Made by a program: the position numbers and the translations under genes. The notes beneath the pieces are model-generated. The model saw nothing but the letters and a program-made list of their open reading frames with translations, ran no database searches and was not told the DNA's origin. Shown here in pieces: positions 2,339-27,247 of a stretch of DNA of 32,000 bases. The stretch spans positions 176,565 through 208,564 of the forward strand of contig CP002161.1 in the NCBI GenBank assembly GCA_000147015.1, in the 5' to 3' direction. The stretch is from Candidatus Saccharimonadota bacterium (GTDB taxonomy: Bacteria > Pseudomonadota > Gammaproteobacteria > Burkholderiales > Burkholderiaceae). Position 1 is the first letter of the stretch; every line of letters starts with the position of its first letter.

Positions 2339-3642
2339 AAAGTATAAATACAATATTACTTTTAGATAATAAATATAAATGAAAATTAAAAAATGAAATT
2401 ATTTATTAAATAAAAATTATTTTATATATAAAAGATTAAAAATAGAAATATTATGATTTAAAAATATAATATAAAATTTTTTAAAAAAGAAAATTTATAA
2501 AAAAATAATAAATTTTTAAATAATATATTTAAAAAACTTTAAAATTATGATTCAATAAAAATAAAAAGAAAATATAATAAAATATAACATAAAATAAATA
2601 GAATATTGAATTAAAAATAAAATAAAAAATAAAGAAATAAATAAATATTCTGAATTTATACATTTTGAATGTATATCAGATGATATAAATAATATAACTT
2701 ATATTAAAATAATAAAAGAAATAATAAAAAATAATATATCCTAGTTTAAAAATAATTATAAATAAATTAATAATTATATCATATAAATATTCAAAAATAA
2801 TTATGTTATAAATATTCATAAGTAAAAGACTACTCCTATTAGTTTAGATAAAGAATTTTCTATTTTTATTTATATAATAAAAATACAATTAAAAAAATTA
2901 TTAAATATAAAAATATTAGGAAAATTAAATAATTTTGGAAATTTTAATACAAAATATTTTATAAATAATAAATTTAAATGATTAAAATTTATTAAAAAAT
3001 TTATAGAAAAAAATTAAAATTAAAATATAATTATTATCAAATAAATTTGCATGATTATATATTAAAATATTTAATTTAATTCATTTTATTAATATAATAT
3101 TAATAAATTTAAATAAAAATATATGACATTATATATCAATAGAATATTTAAAACAAAAAAATATTTTAAAAATAGATTAATTATTAATTCTCAATAAAGT
3201 TAATTCAATAAATTTTGAAAACTTAAAAAGAAATTTACTTTTATTAAATTCATTATTTAAATTTTTTTTTGAAAAATTACCAATTTCTAAATTACAAAGA
3301 TATTTAAGTTATTCTACTATATTAAAAAATATAAATATTTCAATAAATTATAGTTATATTTTACTTTTAAATGGTTTAAAAAATATAATAAATAAAAAAA
3401 TAAATAAAAAATAAAAATCTTGAGCAATATTGTCTTAACCAATTCAAACTATAATGAAATATTATAAAATAAAAAATTCTTATGAAAAATTAAAAATTTT
3501 AGCAAGAGGAAAAAATTTTTAAAAAAGATATTAAAATAATTATAAATAATTTAAATAACCAAATATAATAAAAAATAAAATTTTAAAATTAAAACCTATA
3601 AATTATAAAGGAATATCAAATTTTTTATCTATTAATATATAA
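2332..3642 (+). pseudogene. purB: Adenylosuccinate lyase (purB) relic, colinear but full of stops and frame changes
   Basis: Colinear similarity to PurB:
- LLDNKY (cf PVDGRY).
- EFIHFECISDDINNITY at 2652-2702 (cf EFIHFACTSEDINNLSH).
- IKILGKLNNFGNFN at 2907-2948 (cf VEILGKINGAVGNYN).
- NKVNSINFEN...KLPISKLQRYLSYSTILKN at 3187-3411 (cf HKVNPIDFEN...KLPVSRWQRDLTDSTVLRN).
- YEKLKILARGK (cf YEKLKELTRGK).
The first in-frame TAA is at 2407-2409. The frame differs between 2332, 2430-2948 and 3187-3642. There are six in-frame TAA in the last 152 codons (3412, 3436, 3520, 3532, 3547, 3556). Confidence 0.88.
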
Positions 3643-3709
3643 AAAATAAATATTATTATATATTTTATAAAATATATATAACAACATTAATAAAATTTAA
3701 ATTATAAAA

Positions 3710-5197
3710 TTATTTAATATATGGAAATAATATAATATCTTTAATATTACTAATATTATTTAATATCATAACTAATCTATCTATACCTATACCACAACCA
3801 GAAGTAGGAGGCATTCCATATTCTAATGCTTTTATGTAATCATAATCATAATTATATTTTATATTTTTTTTATTTTTTTCTAATATTTGTTTATTAAATC
3901 TAATATCTTGATCTTCGGGATCATTTAATTCTGTAAAACCATTAGCTATTTCTAAATTAAAAATAAATAATTCAAAGCGTTCTGTAAAAAATTTATTTTT
4001 TTTTCTTAAAGATAAAGGAGAATTTAAAGAAGGATAATTAATTATAAAAGTAGGAAATATTATTTTAGGTATAATTTTTATTTCAAACAAAATATATTGT
4101 AATTCTAATATAGTATATTTAAATAATTTAATCTTATTTATTTTTTTTTTATTTTTTAATATTTTATTATATAAAAAATTAAAATTAAATAAATAATTTT
4201 TATATTTAGGTTTATATTTTATTATAGCTTGTAAAATAGAATATTTTTTAAATTTTTTTTTAAAGTTAATTTTAAAATTTTTATAATTTATTATATAATT
4301 TTTATTAGTTTTATAAATAATATTTTTTATAAATTTTTCAACAAATTTCATAATTCATTTATAATTAACATATGTAATATAAAATTCTAATATAGTAAAT
4401 TCAGGATTATGAGTACTAGAAATTCCTTCATTTCTAAAGCTTTTGTTTATTTCATATATTCTTTCAAAACCACCAATAATTAATTTTTTTAAATATAATT
4501 CTGGAGAAATTCTAAGAAACATTTTTTTATAAAATTTATTATGATAAGTAATAAATGGTATAGCTTCAGCACCACCAGGAATATTATGTAAAATAGGCGT
4601 TTCTACTTCTAAAAAATTATTTTTTTTAAAAAATGATCTTATTTTGTTAATAATCATTATTCTTTTAATAAAAATATTCATATTTTCAGAATTCATAATA
4701 AAATCTAAATATCTTTTATAATATTTTTTATAATTTAAATTATTATATATTTTATTTGGTAAAGGTCTTAAAGATTTAGTAATTAATTTTATTTTATTTA
4801 CATTAACTGATAATTCATTAGTATTTGTTTTAAATAAAATTCCAATTATGCCAATTATATCTCCTAAATCATAATTTTTAATTTCTATATATTTTTTATT
4901 TCCTATATTATTTAAATTTATATATAATTGTATTATACCTATTTTATTTTTTTTAGAAAAATCTCTTATATTAAAAAAAGAAATTTTTCCCATAATTCTT
5001 TTTAAAATTATTCTTCCTGATAAAGAAACTTTAATATTTAATAAATTTAAATAAATTTTATTTAAAATATTATATTTTTTAATAATATCATAAGATTTAT
5101 TTTTTACACAAAAATTATTTTTATATGAATAACCACTTAACCTTAAAATTTTAAGTTTTTTTCTTCTTTTTTTAATAATAATATTTTTTTTATTCAT
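3710..5197 (-). CDS. lysS: Lysine--tRNA ligase (class II)
   Basis: Two track ORFs (3710-4351 and 4355-5197) are in one frame, joined by TGA at 4355-4357 (FYITYVNYK-W-IMKF, cf E. coli ELYMAYADYKDLIELTE). Motifs: FLEVETPILHNIPGGAEAIPFITYHN, FRNEGISSTHNPEFT, GCGIGIDRLVM. Confidence 0.95.
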
Positions 5198-5217
5198 AAT
5201 TTTTAATTATTTTTATT

Positions 5218-6669
5218 TTATTTAAATAAAAAATTTAATTTAAAAATAGAAAAATTATAAAATATATTAAATTTTTTGTTAATTTTAAAATTATATTTAT
5301 AATTATAAAAATTATTTAAAAATAAATTATTATTTATATTTTTAATATTTCATAATTTTAAATATTTATTAATATTAAAATAATTTAATAAATATTTGTA
5401 ATAAAATAATATTGAATAATTTATATTATAATTATAGTTAAATATATTTATTACTAAAAGATTTAATTTATGAAAATAAAATTTATTATATATTTTTTTT
5501 TTTAAATATATATTTTTTGTTTTTTCTATAATAGTCTGAATATTATATTTTCAAGAAATTTTTATTAATTTAAATATTTTTTTTAATTCTAAATATTTTA
5601 ATTTATTTAAATTATAAAAATTATTTTTTTTAAATATATTTCCTAAAATTAAACTTACATTATATTTTTTAATTATTTTACAAATATTTTTAAATTTTTT
5701 AAATAAAAAAAATTCTTTATTATTTATAAAACATCATTTTAAAATTATAGAACCTTCTCTTGAAATATTATTATTATATTTCTTAATAAAATATGGAATA
5801 TATTTTAAAGTTAAACCAAAATAAAAAATGAAACAATCAATTCCATTAATTGATTGTTTTAATATTATTTTTTTAAATATTTTTCAATTTATTTTTTTTA
5901 TTTTTCAATTACATTTTTCTAAAGTTTCATAAATTGGTATAGTTACAATAGGTATATGATTATTTTTAATAATTAAATTTCTTATTTTTTTAATATTTTT
6001 ATTAAAATATAAAAAAATTATTAAATTATTATTTAATTTAATTGATATAATTAATTTTTCTAATTTTTTAAAAATATTATAATTTATATTATAATTTTGT
6101 ATATTAAAATTTATTTTAAATAAAAAATTTTTACCTATAATAATAGGTTGTATTTGATTATGATTAATATTACAAGGTATTATAGCTAAACCTTTATATA
6201 TTTTTTTTCTTATATATTCTGGATTTTTAATTAATATTTTTTTATTAGTAAAATTTTTTTTAATATTTATTATTTTTAATAAGTTTAAATATTTTATATA
6301 TTTTTTTTTATATATATTTTCTTTTATTGATATATATTCCATTTCACAACTTATAATTCCTAATTTAGCATAATAAATTTGCGTTATATTTTTTTTATAA
6401 TTAATATTTTTTCTGTTTAAAATTCAATTTTTTAATAATGGAGGTAAACCTAAATTAAAATTTATATTATAATCATTTTTAATGTAATATAATAAACTAT
6501 TATAAATATAAGGTATATAATTTTTTAAATTATAATTTAAAATTTTAATTATTGGAACATTTATATTATATAAATTTCCTTTTATATATCTTTTTATATA
6601 ACTAAAATTTTTAGATATTTTTTTTATTTTTTTTTTAAAATAAAAAATATCATTATTTATTAAAAACAT
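5218..6669 (-). CDS. thiC: ThiC-like protein (HMP-P synthase homolog); ORF intact, catalytic motifs eroded
   Basis: 483 codons were hand-checked as open under table 4, with TGA at 6424, 5905, 5884, 5725, 5551 and 5350. Clear ThiC colinearity: YYAKLGIISCEMEYISIKEN, GLAIIPCNINH, PIVTIPIYETLEK, GIDCFIFYFG, REGSIILKWC, YNVSLILG, ISWKYNIQTII. EGPGH is replaced by EKTKN (5512-5526). The last 100 codons (5221-5520) contain no Cys, so there is no CX2CX4C cluster motif. Confidence 0.75.
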
Positions 6670-6674
6670 TTAAC

Positions 6675-8972
6675 ATGAAAAAAATGAATTTTTGAATTAA
6701 ACAATGAAAATTTAGAAAAAATAAAAATAAAAAAAAAATTTTTATAACACAATTACCACCTCCTAATATAACAGGAAAATTACACATAGGACATAATTTA
6801 GAACATACAATAATGGATATTTTAATAAGATATAAATATTTTTTAGGTTATAAAACTATATTTATTCCTGGTATAGATCATGCAGGAATAGCTACTCAAT
6901 TAATAGTAAAAAATAATTTTATAAAGAAATATAATAAAAAAAATATAATAAAAAAAATTTTTATATGAAAAAATATAATAAGTAAAAAAATTATTAACCA
7001 AATATTAAAATTAGGATTATTATTAAATTGAAAATATAAATACTTTACATTAAATAAAAATATAAATTTAATAATAAAAAAAGTTTTTAAAAAATTATTT
7101 AAAAAAAAAATAATATATAAAAAATCTAAATTAGTAAATTGAGATTATAAATTTAAAACAGTTGTTTCTGATTTAGAAATAAAAAAAAAAAGAAAAAAAA
7201 TATTTGGATATTATATAAGATATTATTTTAATAAAAATAATAAAAAATATATAATAATATTTACTACAAAACCAGAAACTTTATTTGGAGATACTGCATT
7301 AGCAATTTCTTTTAAAAATAAAAAAAATTTAATTTTAAATAAAATAGAAATTATAATACCTATTTTAAATAAAAAAATAAGTATTATAAAAAGTAATTAT
7401 GTAAAAAATAATTTAGGTACAGGAATATTAAAAATAACACCATTTCATGATTTTAATGATTATAAAATTTATAAAAAAAATAATTTAAAAAAAATTTGTA
7501 TTTTTAAATATAATGGAAAATTAAATAAAAATAATCCTATAAAATATCAAAATATTAAAATTAAAAAATTTAAAAAAATAATAATAAAAGATTTAATAAA
7601 AAAAAAATATATACAAAAAAAAATAAAATATTTAACTAAAATTTCTTATATAGAAAAAACAGGAATTATACCATTAAAAATGTTAACTAAACAATGATTT
7701 TTAAAAATAAAAAAAAAATATAAAAAAAAAATATTTAAAATAATAAAAAATGGAGAAATAAAATTTATACCTAATTATTGAAAAAATACATTTTATTCAT
7801 GAATAAATAATATGAAAGAATGATGTATTTCTAGACAAATATTTTGAGGTCATAGAATACCTATATATTATAAAAAAAAATATAGAGATAAAAATGTATT
7901 AGATACATGATTTTCTTCTTCATTAATTCCTATATTTTTTTACAAAAATTTTAAAAAAAAGAAAATTTCTTTACCATTTAATATAATTATTTCTGGTTTT
8001 GATATAATTTTTTTTTGAATAATTAAAATGATAATTATGACTTTATATATAAAAAACAAAATACCATTTAAAAAAATTATAATACATGGTTTAATATGCG
8101 ATTCTAATAATAAAAAAATGTCTAAATCAAAAGGTAATATTATAAGTTATAATAATTTATTTAAAAATATAAATTTTAAAAATAAAATATATTTTACTGA
8201 CATATTAAGATTTACATTTTCTAATTTAAATATATATAAAAATAGCATTATATTTAAAAAAAAATACATAAATAAAAATTATAAATTTATAAATAAACTA
8301 TTAAACGGGATAAAATTTATCAAAATAAATCTTAAAAAAAATAATTTTAATTTTAATGATTATATTTTTTATAAAAAACTAAAAAATTTAAAAATTATAA
8401 AATATTCAATATTTGATATATATATAAATTCATTATTACAAAAATTAATTATAAATATAAAAAAAAATTTTAGTAATTATAAAATAAATAAAATTTCAAA
8501 AAAAATATATAATTTTATTTGAAATGAATTTTGTAATTTTTATATTCAAGTAGTAAAAAAAGATTTAAAAAATAGTAATTTATTAAAAAATAAAATAATT
8601 TTATTTAATTTAATAAATATTTTAAAAAATATAATAAAATTAATAAATCCAATAATGCCATTTTTTTCAGAAAAAATTTGAAAAAAAATTTCTTTCTTTT
8701 TTTTTAAAAAAAAAAGAAATAAATTTATATTTAATTATAAATATCCTATATTTAATTTTAATAATATAAATAATAAAAATGAAAATTTTATAAAAAAAAT
8801 AAAAATTATAAAAAAAAAATATATTAAATTTAAAAATAAAAATTTATTAATAAAAAATAATATAAATTTGTTATTTAATAATATCAAAAGTAATATATTT
8901 TATATAAATTTAAAATATATTAAAAAATATTATATTTATAATTTTAAAATAGAAAATATATTATTATATTAA
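6675..8972 (+). CDS. valS: Valine--tRNA ligase
   Basis: 765 codons were hand-checked as open under table 4, with many TGA. Motifs: PPPNITGKLHIGH (HIGH), TTKPETLFGDTALAIS, GTGILKITPFHDFNDY, WCISRQIFWGHRIP, LDTWFSS, KMSKSKGN (KMSKS), WNEFCNFY, INPIMPFFSEKIW. The track shows only the 8028-8522 fragment. Confidence 0.95.
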
Positions 8973-9336: not shown

Positions 9337-10011
9337 TTAAATATTAATCTTTTTTATTTTTTTAATAAATATATTTAAAGATTTTTTAATAATTTTTTTT
9401 GGTTTTAAAATTCCATTTGTTTTTATATAAATTTTTAAATCTTCATATTTTTTTTTTATTATTTTTTTTTTAATTTTAAAAAAAAATTTTTTAACAGGTG
9501 TATAATTTGTATCTAAGTATATAACTATTTTTTTTTTTTCTTTATTATAATATTTAAATTTTTTTTTTTCATTATTATTAATATAACCCTTTCCTTTTTT
9601 AACTTTTATTAAAATATTTAATTTAGTTTTTATAATTGCATTAGCTATTAAATGACTAGGGTTTAAAATTTTAATATTTTTATTTAATGTTTTAATATTA
9701 TAAGCATATATTGGACCTAAAAAATAATTTTTTAAAAAAAAAGTAGTTTTATTATTTTTTATTTTAAATATTACATTTTTAATATTTAAAACAATATCAA
9801 TAATATCTTCTTTAATTCCTTTTATATATGAAATTTCATTTTTAATATTTTTAAATATTATTTTATAAACACAAAAACCTTTTATTTGATTTAAAGATAT
9901 TTTTTTAATAAAATTAGCAATAATATTTGCAATACCATTTTTTAAATTTTTTAAATAAAATAAAGAATAATTTATTCCTATTTTTTTTTCTATAAATTTA
10001 TTAATTTTCAT
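9337..10011 (-). CDS. rpoA: DNA-directed RNA polymerase alpha subunit, N-terminal domain only
   Basis: 224 aa. GIANIIANFIKKISL..., GIKEDIIDIVLNIKN and IKTNGILKPKKIIKKSLNIFIKK match the alpha NTD (cf [23 protein letters not shown]). A genuine TAA at 9337-9339 follows immediately. Position is between rpsD and rplQ. Confidence 0.85.
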   Translation of the reverse strand: MKINKFIEKKIGINYSLFYLKNLKNGIANIIANFIKKISLNQIKGFCVYKIIFKNIKNEISYIKGIKEDIIDIVLNIKNVIFKIKNNKTTFFLKNYFLGPIYAYNIKTLNKNIKILNPSHLIANAIIKTKLNILIKVKKGKGYINNNEKKKFKYYNKEKKKIVIYLDTNYTPVKKFFFKIKKKIIKKKYEDLKIYIKTNGILKPKKIIKKSLNIFIKKIKKINI

Positions 10012-11574: not shown

Positions 11575-12753
11575 TTATTTCATTTTAATATTATATTTTT
11601 TAAATATAAAAAATTTAAAAATTTTTTCAAAAATTTCAAAAATAAAATTAATAACAATAATTAAAGAAATTCCATTAAAATATATAGGAAATTTTAAAAA
11701 TATAAATAAAAAATGAGGTATCAAAATTAATAAATTTGTAAAAAATAAATTTAAAATAAAAAGATTATTTTGAATTTTATTAATATAATTTATCATATTT
11801 TTTCCTCTTTTTATACCTAAAATATAACCAGAATTTTTGTTTAAAATATTAAAAAGTTTTTTATTATTAAAAATTTTAAAATTAATAATAAAATTTAAAA
11901 AAGAAAATATTAAAGAAAATATTATTGTAAATAAAAAATTTTCTATATTTAATAAAATAATTTTATTTAAAATAAAATATAAAAAATATGAAAATATAAT
12001 ACTTAAATTATTTAAAGGATTTATTTTTAATATTATAAAATTATCATTTAATTTATAAATTTTGTTACCAATTTGTTTATCTAAATATTTTATTTTAATT
12101 TTTTGATATATTTTTTCAAAAAAAATTATTAAAGATATTATTATTAAAAGACAAATAAATATATAAAATATATAAAAAAAACAAATATTTTTATTATAAT
12201 ATAAATATATTATTTTTTTAATAAAGTTATAAAAATTATAAAAAATGTTAATAGATATTATGAAAGATATACTATTTATTAAACAAATATTTTTTATATT
12301 TTCAATAATTCATGATAAAATTAAATAAGAATTTAAAATAATAATGAAAATTATAAATTTATAATAAAAAAAATTATATTTTAATTTTATAAAAAGATTT
12401 TTATTAAAAAATAAAATAATTTGTAAAATTTGAATAATATAAAAAATATAATTTAAATATTTTATAAATTTATTTTTTTTATATTTTTTAAAATATAAAA
12501 AAAATAAATTTATAAAAAAAATAATTAATATATAAAAATTAATATTAAAAATAAATATATTAAATTTTAAAAAATTATTAATACAAAATATATTTAAAAA
12601 ACTAATTATATTATTTTTATAAAAAAAAGATAATTTTTTATAATCTAAAAATGGAATTTTAATATTTAAACCAAATATATAAATAAAAGTAAATATAAAA
12701 ATAAAAACAATGTTTTTAAAAGGTAAAAATAAAATATTTTTTATATTATTCAT
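11575..12753 (-). CDS. secY: Preprotein translocase subunit SecY (short, highly diverged)
   Basis: 392 codons were hand-checked as open, with one TGA at 12310-12312. The N-terminus resembles the SecY TM1-TM2 region. [24 protein letters not shown]...LILIPHF matches [25 protein letters not shown]...CLIPEF. Canonical position between rplO and rpmJ. Confidence 0.85.
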
Positions 12754-25711: not shown

Positions 25712-27247
25712 ATGAGTAATAGTTATATAAATTATGCAATAAATGTAATATCTAATAGAGCATTACCTGATATAATAGATGGTTTAAAACCAGTACATAG
25801 AAGAATATTATATACTATGTATAAAATAAAAAATAATTATAAAAATAATTTTATAAAATGTGCAAGAATTGTAGGAGAAGTAATGGGTAAATATCATCCT
25901 CATGGAGATAATTCTATATATGATGCTTTAGTAAGAATGGCTCAAAATTTTTCTTTAAAATATACATTAATTAAAGGACAAGGAAATTTTGGTTCTATAG
26001 ATGGAGATAATGCTGCTGCAATGAGATATACAGAATGTAAATTAAATAAAATATCCAATGAATTTTTTCATGATATAAATAAAAATACTGTTAAATTTAT
26101 AAATAATTATGATAATAAAGAAAAAGAACCATTAGTATTACCATGTAGAATACCCAATTTATTAATTAATGGTAGTTATGGAATAGCTGTAGGTATGTCA
26201 ACAAATATACCTCCACATAATTTTACAGATTCTATAAATACAGCTATATACTTATTATTATTTTCAGAATGTAAAATTAAAGATTTAATTAAAATTTTAA
26301 AAGCACCAGATTTTCCTACAGGAGGAAATATAATAAAAATATCAAAACTTCATAATGCATATTATTATGGAAAAGGAAGTGTTACAATAAATTCTAAATT
26401 TATTTTTGAAAAAATAAATAAAAAAACTAATATTATTATAACAGAAATACCTTATCAAATAAATAAAAAAAAAATATTAGAACAAATAATAAAATTAATA
26501 AAAAATAAAAAAATAAATTTTATTAATAATTTAAAAGATGAATCAAATAAATTAGGAATTAGAATAGTAATAGAATTAAAGAAAAATTTAAATAAAAATA
26601 AAATTTTAAAAATTTTATTTAAAAAAACTTCTTTACAACATACAATAAATATTAATATTATTGCCTTAATAAAAAATATTCCTAAAAAATTAAATTTAAA
26701 AAAAATATTAATATATTTTATAAAATATAGAAAAAAATTAATAATTAAAAAATTAAAATTTATATTAAAAAAATTAAAAAAAAAAAAATATTTATTAGAA
26801 GGTTTTGTAGTAGTAATAAATAATATAAATAAATTTATAAAAATAGTCAAAAAATCAAAAAATAATATTGAGGCTATAAAAAATATAACATCAAATAATT
26901 GAAAATTATTTATAAAATTAAAAATAATAAATTTTAATAAAAAAAATAAGAAATATATTAAAAATATAAAAAAGAAAATAAAAATACCTTATACAAAAAA
27001 ATACAAAATTTCAGTTATACAATCAAAATTAGTATTAAAATTAAGATTAAATAAAATAATAAAATTAGAAAGTTATAAAATTTTTAAAAAATATAAATTA
27101 ATAATAATTAAAATATTAATATATTTTATTATATTAAAAAAGAAAAATAAAATTTATGATGTAATATTTGAAGAATTAAATTATATAAAATATAATACAA
27201 AAATTAAAAATAAAGATATAAGATTAACAAATATAAATAAAAAATAA
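25712..27247 (+). CDS. gyrA: DNA gyrase subunit A, N-terminal (breakage-reunion plus coiled-coil) part only
   Basis: 511 codons were hand-checked as open, with TGA at 26900-26902. Motifs: SYINYAINVISNRALPDIIDGLKPVHRRILYTM, GKYHPHGDNSIYDALVRMAQ, GQGNFGSIDGDNAAAMRYTE (active-site Tyr). It ends ...IFEELNYIKYNTKIKNKDIRLTNINKK (cf VIREELELVREQFGDKRRTEI) followed by TAA at 27245-27247. The start may lie upstream at a non-ATG codon. Confidence 0.92.

Follow-up and report, generated by a model that had tools for sequence, protein, structure and literature searches.

A thiC-derived gene of Candidatus Zinderia insecticola that lost its catalytic residues and kept an open frame of 483 codons

Introduction

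Eroded and shortened genes have long been noted in extremely reduced symbiont genomes such as those of Carsonella and Hodgkinia. The function of these genes in tiny symbiont genomes is an old and mostly untestable question. Here, one such gene, a derivative of thiC, is described from Candidatus Zinderia insecticola CARI, where it is located on the reverse strand at positions 5218-6669 of a window of 32,000 nt (GenBank contig CP002161.1, positions 176,565-208,564), to which the coordinates below refer unless stated otherwise. CARI is a betaproteobacterial symbiont of the spittlebug Clastoptera arizonana with a genome of 208,564 bp. The annotation of the gene as ThiC is already in GenBank and is not newly found here: the product of the open reading frame (ORF) is identical to the entry “putative thiamine biosynthesis protein ThiC” of Candidatus Zinderia insecticola CARI. 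None of the papers searched discusses Zinderia thiC, and the genome paper is silent on the gene. A search with the neighboring LysS identified a second Zinderia genome, from the host Aphrophora alni (OZ026462.1; 336,619 bp, ~16% guanine plus cytosine, GC), which is referred to below as the sister genome. The analysis indicates with high probability that the gene is dead as a 4-amino-5-hydroxymethyl-2-methylpyrimidine phosphate (HMP-P) synthase and that its frame is protected by selection. What is new is that catalytic death is demonstrated residue by residue, that a deleted thiCSGE-prfB cluster is reconstructed from the sister genome and that the frame-preserving selection is supported quantitatively.

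The closest described system is ThiC itself (PF01964, NF006763; structures 3EPM and 4S2A of Caulobacter crescentus; P0271 of the sister genome). The ORF resembles it in the colinear N-terminal domain and barrel core and in its position between valS and lysS, whereas it is about 75 codons short, lacks the CX2CX4C motif, has lost the metal-binding His residues and the Glu at the ribose of S-adenosylmethionine (SAM), and is no longer accompanied by thiS, thiG and thiE. Pseudoenzymes, defined as catalytically dead homologues retained for non-catalytic roles, offer a second comparison. Like them, the ORF is devoid of catalytic residues and its frame is maintained beyond neutral expectation; unlike them, its decay looks mutational rather than remodelled, and its expression, purifying selection on its amino acids and a non-catalytic role are putative. 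An ordinary pseudogene, a relic of purB, is present in the same window. Both are orphaned pathway genes with strongly relaxed constraint and AT-ward decay (8.2% GC in the ORF vs. 8.5% in the relic), yet the thiC-derived ORF has no stop in 483 codons and keeps a GC content at the first and second codon positions far above that of the third. With the eroded genes of Carsonella, Nasuia and Hodgkinia, it shares a frame that has stayed intact despite the loss of domains and conserved residues, in a genome with roughly 200 genes. It differs from these in that the loss can be read per residue against a solved mechanism, that the pathway is deleted and that both a pseudogene and a sister gene are at hand as controls. 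For Nasuia, some proteins were described as so AT-eroded that they “may be pseudogenes” (Nasuia genome paper).

Two further groups of ThiC relatives were compared. The paralogues BzaA, BzaB and BzaF (TIGR04386), which act in the synthesis of the lower ligand of vitamin B12, have the ThiC fold as well; however, they retain the cluster and the catalytic residues, and the ORF is nearer to true ThiC. With 71.2 bits on TIGR04386 against a cutoff of 700, an identity as a Bza paralogue was rejected. The cluster-less ThiC-like proteins P0029, P0045, P0095, P0062, P0120 and P0005 (467-565 aa) are also ThiC-derived and lack CX2CX4C. Their NANIGNS, DLSTG, HAG and EGPGH motifs are altered, and with 353-626 bits they stay under the NF006763 cutoff. 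In contrast to the Zinderia ORF, they are not AT-driven and are far less eroded. Judged by their sequences, they may be decaying genes or belong to a class of non-catalytic ThiC derivatives that has arisen repeatedly.

Frame, Ancestry and Domain Layout

The ORF is read from an ATG at 6669-6667 to a TAA at 5220-5218 and comprises 483 codons (1452 nt, 8.2% GC) without any in-frame TAA or TAG before the terminal TAA. Six in-frame TGA codons (6424-6426, 5905-5907, 5884-5886, 5734-5736, 5551-5553 and 5350-5352, reverse strand) are read as Trp: translation table 11 fragments the ORF, and code 4 restores the frame. Code 4 is likewise required by the adjoining lysS, and the genes of the window are intact only with TGA as Trp, in agreement with the published genetic code of Zinderia. 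The same sequence, 100% identical across 15.7 kb, is present in an independent Logan assembly (SRR29904085); therefore, the open frame is no sequencing artefact. Within a window whose GC content ranges from 6 to 27%, the G+C bases of the ORF are distributed over the three codon positions as 49/58/12 (10.1/12.0/2.5%). This is a coding-like pattern, and comparable values, with the first two positions far above the third, are found in the presumed-functional ksgA, metF, valS and secY. No riboswitch or other RNA match was obtained in an Rfam scan of window positions 5000-7000 and of the region upstream of the sister thiC. The two basic statements of the initial annotation, that a 483-codon frame is free of TAA and TAG and that its product derives from ThiC, both held up.

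The ThiC ancestry is most evident in codons 93-391 (5497-6393, reverse strand), which according to HMMER alignments form the recognizable ThiC core, i.e., the beginning of the (beta-alpha)8 barrel, which includes the site for 5-aminoimidazole ribotide (AIR). The PF01964 (ThiC_Rad_SAM) profile matches aa 96-383 over its positions 1-263 of 420 (E = 1.1e-47; 163 bits vs. a cutoff of 25), and the Caulobacter ThiC structure 3EPM matches aa 93-391 (E = 2.5e-62). Identity to the sister ThiC amounts to 41% overall and 47% in the core, where only one small indel separates the two proteins over ~290 codons. The core also carries the coding-like composition (37/43/6 G+C bases by codon position, p = 1e-6). 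An AlphaFold2 model based on a 30-sequence alignment had a mean predicted local distance difference test (pLDDT) score of 54, with values of 70-90 for aa 240-380, the only confident part. A fold search with this model returned ThiC structures as best matches, at a template modeling (TM) score of ~0.5, and gave no functional insight beyond ThiC.

The core is preceded by a remnant of the N-terminal ThiC-associated domain (codons 1-92; 6394-6669, reverse strand), which is colinear with the sister ortholog. The match to PF13667 is weak (E = 0.011). Aligned with the N-terminus of the sister ThiC, these codons reach a local score of 115, compared with 50.7 +/- 8.3 for shuffled sequences (z = 7.8; none of 2000 shuffles equal), while 92-aa pieces of the core, used as a control, give z = 17-24 against the same protein. 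The third part, codons 392-483 (5221-5496, reverse strand), is located where ThiC has barrel strands 7-8 and the linker, and it contains no [4Fe-4S] domain. This tail is compositionally neutral, with 3.3% GC and only nine G/C bases that are spread evenly over the codon positions (3/3/3), and its pLDDT stays below 35. It is nevertheless open over 92 codons (P = 1.4e-5), whereas its five other frames hold 10-22 stops. Comparisons of the tail with the sister ThiC C-terminus, with ThiS, ThiG, ThiE and PrfB and with all three frames of the thiC-to-lysS interval yielded nothing significant (z -2.0 to 1.6); a profile test gave a borderline value (p ~0.04, with colinear pieces). From its sequence, the tail may be either an in-frame ThiC remnant or fused foreign DNA.

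Loss of Catalytic Residues

Active-site residues were mapped through alignments from the published ThiC active site (PMC4389238). Among the absolutely conserved His ligands of the second metal, C. crescentus (Cc) His417 corresponds to Asn386 or a gap, and Cc His481 to Tyr436; the SAM-ribose Glu (Cc Glu480) is replaced by Lys435. While N189, L220, Y247, S303, R304, E382 and L439 are retained, G191Q, H283Y, G305E, D344N, R347K, Y-to-H400, E-to-K435 and P-to-W440 are altered. In the AIR-binding set (At N228, Y286, H322, S342, R343, G344, D383, R386, E422 and Y449), five residues are identical (N189, Y247, S303, R304 and E382), two differ by single G-to-A steps (D344N and R347K) and three are lost (H283Y, G305E and Y-to-H400). 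The cysteines of CX2CX4C and the adenine-stacking Met are absent, as the ORF stops ~75 codons short of the motif. Ligands at shifted positions were not found: the whole protein contains six Cys, the last at residue 330, three His, none after residue 400, and no CxxC. With the metal His residues, the SAM-ribose Glu and CX2CX4C lost, HMP-P synthesis is in all likelihood no longer possible.

These alignments support the initial conclusion that radical-SAM HMP-P synthesis by this protein is impossible, and they correct some of the details on which it was built. The replacements of NANIGNS by NFNIQNY, of HAG by YFG and of EGPGH by EKTKN (5512-5526) were reproduced. MDLSTG is lost as well, although its true partner is IFLYFN and not IIFLYF, which lies one residue off. 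The change in SLGDGLRPG was also recovered, in a register that differs by two residues: LGDG(F/L)RPG pairs with LGNIFKKN, in which the substrate Asp is replaced by Asn and an “absolutely conserved” Arg by Lys, and not by Leu and Ile. Cys is indeed missing from the last 100 codons, but the cluster motif is not replaced there, since the frame ends before reaching it.

At the level of the whole protein, both equivalog cutoffs are missed (NF006763: 261.9 bits vs. 650; TIGR00190: 189.5 vs. 460), while the sister ThiC scores 890 and 631 bits on the two models. An invariant set was defined as the residues that are constant in 16 ThiCs and whose codons require G or C. The ORF has kept 47 and lost 155 of these 202 residues, compared with 82 kept and 15 lost out of 97 for LysS of the same genome; the N-terminal domain retains seven of its 15. 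The pathway context at the locus is likewise missing, as thiS, thiG and thiE, which adjoin thiC in the sister genome, are absent from the CARI locus, and Zinderia was reported to lack genes for the synthesis of vitamin cofactors and nucleotides (Zinderia genome paper).

It is extremely unlikely that the product is a degenerate but working HMP-P synthase or another radical-SAM enzyme. The annotation as putative ThiC and the seven kept or conservatively changed residues of the AIR site (N189, Y247, S303, R304, E382, D344N and R347K) would be in line with such an enzyme. However, it would have to work without CX2CX4C or any Cys beyond residue 330, without both second-metal His residues and the SAM-ribose Glu and, with thiS, thiG and thiE deleted at the locus, in a genome reported to have neither nucleotide (AIR) nor cofactor synthesis; its scores are also far under the equivalog cutoffs. 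By its sequence, the ThiC-like ORF is outside the functional ThiC family, since cluster motif, metal ligands and equivalog score all fail, and metabolic reconstructions of CARI should leave the gene out as ThiC.

Openness versus Neutral Decay

Based on base composition, the per-codon stop probability is 0.116, corresponding to a stop every 8.6 codons; for 483 codons to remain open, P = 1.3e-26. Read in any of its other five frames, this DNA contains 26-80 stops. In a first-order Markov simulation (n = 2000), the longest open run had a mean of 37 codons and a maximum of 101. Of the 483 codons, 209 are one substitution away from TAA or TAG, and none of the 11 A/T runs of 8-11 nt in the ORF has shifted the frame. 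Neutral decay was simulated from the sister thiC codons under AT-biased mutation (equilibrium GC 3%, kappa 1-4) until the observed loss of the invariant core was reached. This took 0.22-0.32 substitutions per site and produced 19-26 in-frame stops, with a minimum of seven; none of the 900 runs ended with zero stops.

The purB pseudogene (2339-3709, forward strand; 8.5% GC; PF08328, E = 6e-15) serves as an internal neutral control. Its match to PurB of the Protein Data Bank spans the entire relic and is divided between two frames (E = 1e-16 and 7e-31), the N- and C-terminal halves being read in different frames. Over 378 aligned codons, it has accumulated 16 in-frame stops and one frameshift, at a family similarity comparable to that of the ThiC-like ORF. 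This agrees with the earlier description of a relic 1.5 kb away that is hit by stops. The simulation and the purB control therefore lead to the conclusion that selection removes stops and frameshifts from the ThiC-like ORF, and they side with the initial preference for selection on an open frame over a recent inactivation.

A young pseudogene, inactivated too recently for a chance stop or frameshift to have occurred, is accordingly a very improbable explanation. The loss of the pathway partners, the clearly relaxed constraint and the apparently slow deletion in this genome, where the purB relic is still full length, would suit a recent loss. However, 60-77% of the once-invariant residues have been replaced, a level at which neutral decay gives the 19-26 stops (minimum seven) mentioned above. 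The openness of the tail alone, the 16 stops and the frameshift of the purB relic, the 209 codons one step from a stop and the 11 intact slippage-prone homopolymers speak against it as well. Somewhat less improbable, though still unlikely, is selection against truncated products, in which fragments of the expressed relic would be harmful through misfolding, aggregation or chaperone load and the full-length product would be useless. This would explain the openness without a conserved function or a role for lysS and would fit the sequence-blind tail. Yet misfolding should affect the eroded full-length protein at least as much as a fragment, and a silencing mutation or deletion would end the cost.

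Two further observations concern the surroundings of the control. On the strand opposite to the purB relic, the Logan annotation calls a gene of 96 aa (2529-2819, reverse strand), which has a higher GC content at the third codon position (12%) than at the first two (6-7%) and no family match; it is most likely a chance ORF. The region downstream of ksgA (1-472) is free of ORFs and has, with 2.8%, the lowest GC content of the window, which may approximate the neutral equilibrium.

Locus History and Neighboring Genes

In the sister genome, the gene order is rpsD-rpoA-rplQ-valS(-)-thiC-thiS-thiG-orf48-thiE-prfB-lysS-ftn(-)-mnmA(-)-ksgA (locus L003), with thiC through lysS on one strand throughout. 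The sister ThiC (P0271) has 600 aa and all motifs including CSMCGPNFC, and it is 61% identical to the ThiC of Herbaspirillum. CARI has the same flanks, and the ThiC-like ORF is alone between valS and lysS. The shared flanks and the intact sister cluster therefore indicate that thiS, thiG, thiE and prfB were deleted in the CARI lineage. Three-way distances place almost all of the change in ThiC on the CARI branch (0.97 vs. 0.10 for the sister), compared with 0.39 vs. 0.26 for LysS.

The site of the deletion is the junction at 5198-5220 (reverse strand), which consists of the TAA of the ORF and a 20-nt spacer to the lysS ATG (5197); no Shine-Dalgarno-like sequence is found between the ORF stop and lysS. 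The essential lysyl-tRNA synthetase gene lysS (3710-5197, reverse strand), which was used as a functional control, reaches 537 bits on its NCBIfam model against a cutoff of 468. On the other side, the divergent neighbor valS (6675-8972, forward strand) completes the valS/thiC/lysS order that is syntenic with the sister genome. The start codons of the ThiC-like ORF (6669) and of valS (6675) are only 5 nt apart (region 6667-6677), compared with 153 nt in the sister genome. Consequently, each promoter must be located inside the coding sequence of the other gene or farther off.

The best sigma-70-like site of the region is found within the tail (5254-5282, reverse strand; TTAACA-17-TATAAT, 11 of 12 matches), ~57 nt upstream of the lysS ATG. 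No other 11/12 match occurs in 3.4 kb, and of the nine G/C bases in the tail, one falls within this site. The total number of promoter-like sites is at chance level (65 vs. 56 +/- 8.5), and a terminator scan of the region was negative. From its sequence, the site is a possible lysS promoter and is noted as a lead only.

Additional observations were made on the genes around the former cluster. The deletion scar of prfB is the junction of the thiC relic and lysS itself (5198-5217). The sister genome keeps prfB (L003, 8837-9943), and none of the 14 sister genes examined has an in-frame TGA. Of the two Zinderia genomes available, it thus seems that only the CARI lineage reassigned UGA to Trp and lost prfB. 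The purB relic occupies the place of the sister ferritin gene between lysS and mnmA. Within OZ026462.1, positions ~65.7-95.1 kb (L002 and L003) hold approximately three tandem copies of a 7.9-kb unit with a partial prfB, lysS, the ferritin gene, mnmA, ksgA, glyS and glyQ, which is either a true tandem amplification or an assembly artefact.

Selection on the Protein or on Translation

In the favored explanation, the ORF is the last surviving trace of an ancestral thiC-thiS-thiG-thiE-prfB-lysS cluster. In the CARI lineage, thiS, thiG, thiE and prfB were deleted, and thiC shed its C-terminal [4Fe-4S] domain, both second-metal ligands and most invariant residues. Nonsense and frameshift mutations were still purged over all 483 codons, so that the gene persists as a putatively translated, non-catalytic ORF. 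The target of selection would be the protein and not the act of translation: the N-terminal domain and core (codons 1-391) may have a weak, sequence-dependent but non-enzymatic role, as a pseudoenzyme that serves as a structural or binding protein, and the decayed tail would be required merely as an unbroken C-terminal extension. Such a role of the N-terminal domain and core is proposed tentatively, with a probability that falls somewhat short of even.

The two parts of the ORF differ sharply in decay, which counts in favor of this proposal. In codons 1-390, 47 of 164 invariant G/C-requiring residues are kept (29%), in contrast to none of 38 in codons 391-483 (p = 1.7e-6). Residues encoded by AT-only codons make up 78% of the core, equal to rpoA, metF, cyoE and valS. 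Together with the coding-like composition and the single small indel in the core, these results speak for some constraint at the amino-acid level in codons 1-391, on which the evidence as a whole is mixed.

Several results weigh against a role of the protein. Catalytic and other invariant residues are kept alike (3/8 vs. 25/62), and most replacements are single-step changes from G/C to A/T (D>N, R>K, E>K, V>I and H>Y), so that the replacement pattern looks like plain mutational decay and not like remodelling. Heterogeneity of decay inside the core is marginal (p ~0.05). The tail has neither detectable conservation nor a predicted fold and is a poor fit with a closed barrel, and the contrast between core and tail could also be obtained via a deletion that fused the core to unrelated decayed DNA. 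The ratio of nonsynonymous to synonymous substitutions (dN/dS) against the sister genome is saturated and uninformative, with a proportion of synonymous differences of 0.36-0.45 in every gene and values of 0.56-1.1 for presumed-functional genes (lysS 0.72, rpoA 1.1). A close strain of Zinderia CARI was sought and none was found: a word-index protein search gave only the protein itself, and two GTDB genome scans for close relatives returned nothing or the Aphrophora alni genome only. The single further contig that carries the protein was 100% identical. In an exhaustive HMMER search of 1.84 billion representatives, the next best matches were ordinary ThiCs with 34-37% identity, and none of the fetched database matches had a symbiont-like composition.

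An alternative is a role in cis, in which ribosomes must reach to within 20 nt of the lysS start, either for termination-reinitiation coupling or for protection of the message, while the amino acids drift. Such a role is possible but on the whole doubtful, and the same holds for its corollary that the coupled unit would be an inheritance from the thiC...prfB-lysS cluster. It would be consistent with the ORF stop 20 nt before the same-strand lysS, with no Shine-Dalgarno-like sequence, and with the uniform strand of the sister thiC-lysS region. The tail that is open (P = 1.4e-5) despite neutral composition and without conservation, the equal, single-step AT-ward decay of catalytic and other invariant residues and the purB relic, which is riddled with stops and is not followed by a gene on its own strand, would find an explanation as well. 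However, the best promoter-like site is located in the tail, ~57 nt upstream of lysS, so that the lysS transcript may exclude the ORF, and initiation must be possible without an ORF upstream at many genes of this genome. The step in retention from 29% to 0% is unexpected under uniform, sequence-blind drift and would need a separate origin of the tail. Moreover, no established case is known to us in which coupling preserved a dead gene, which also counts against a cis role.

Implications

Erosion is not confined to the ThiC-like ORF in this window, as presumed-essential genes are affected as well. The gene rpoA (9337-10011) encodes 224 aa without the C-terminal domain and scores 129 bits against a cutoff of 277, secY (11575-12753) scores 54 bits against 254, and gyrA (25712-27247) is cut to 511 aa with 591 bits against 902.

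For the study of eroded genes in tiny symbiont genomes, the locus is an unusually clean test case, as it combines a solved mechanism, a deleted pathway, a conventional pseudogene 1.5 kb off and an intact sister operon. In a genome that ranks among the smallest known from bacteria, the 1.45-kb frame might be kept open for a reason unrelated to the enzyme, as a radical-SAM triosephosphate isomerase (TIM) barrel exapted to a non-catalytic use or as a translated “runway” that brings ribosomes to lysS, and this wider idea is put forward as a rather long-odds suggestion. If the runway were true, selection on translation itself would preserve an ORF that is free to drift in sequence. If either a new role of the protein or a role in cis for lysS were true, intact ORFs in such genomes would not simply represent retained metabolic capacity.

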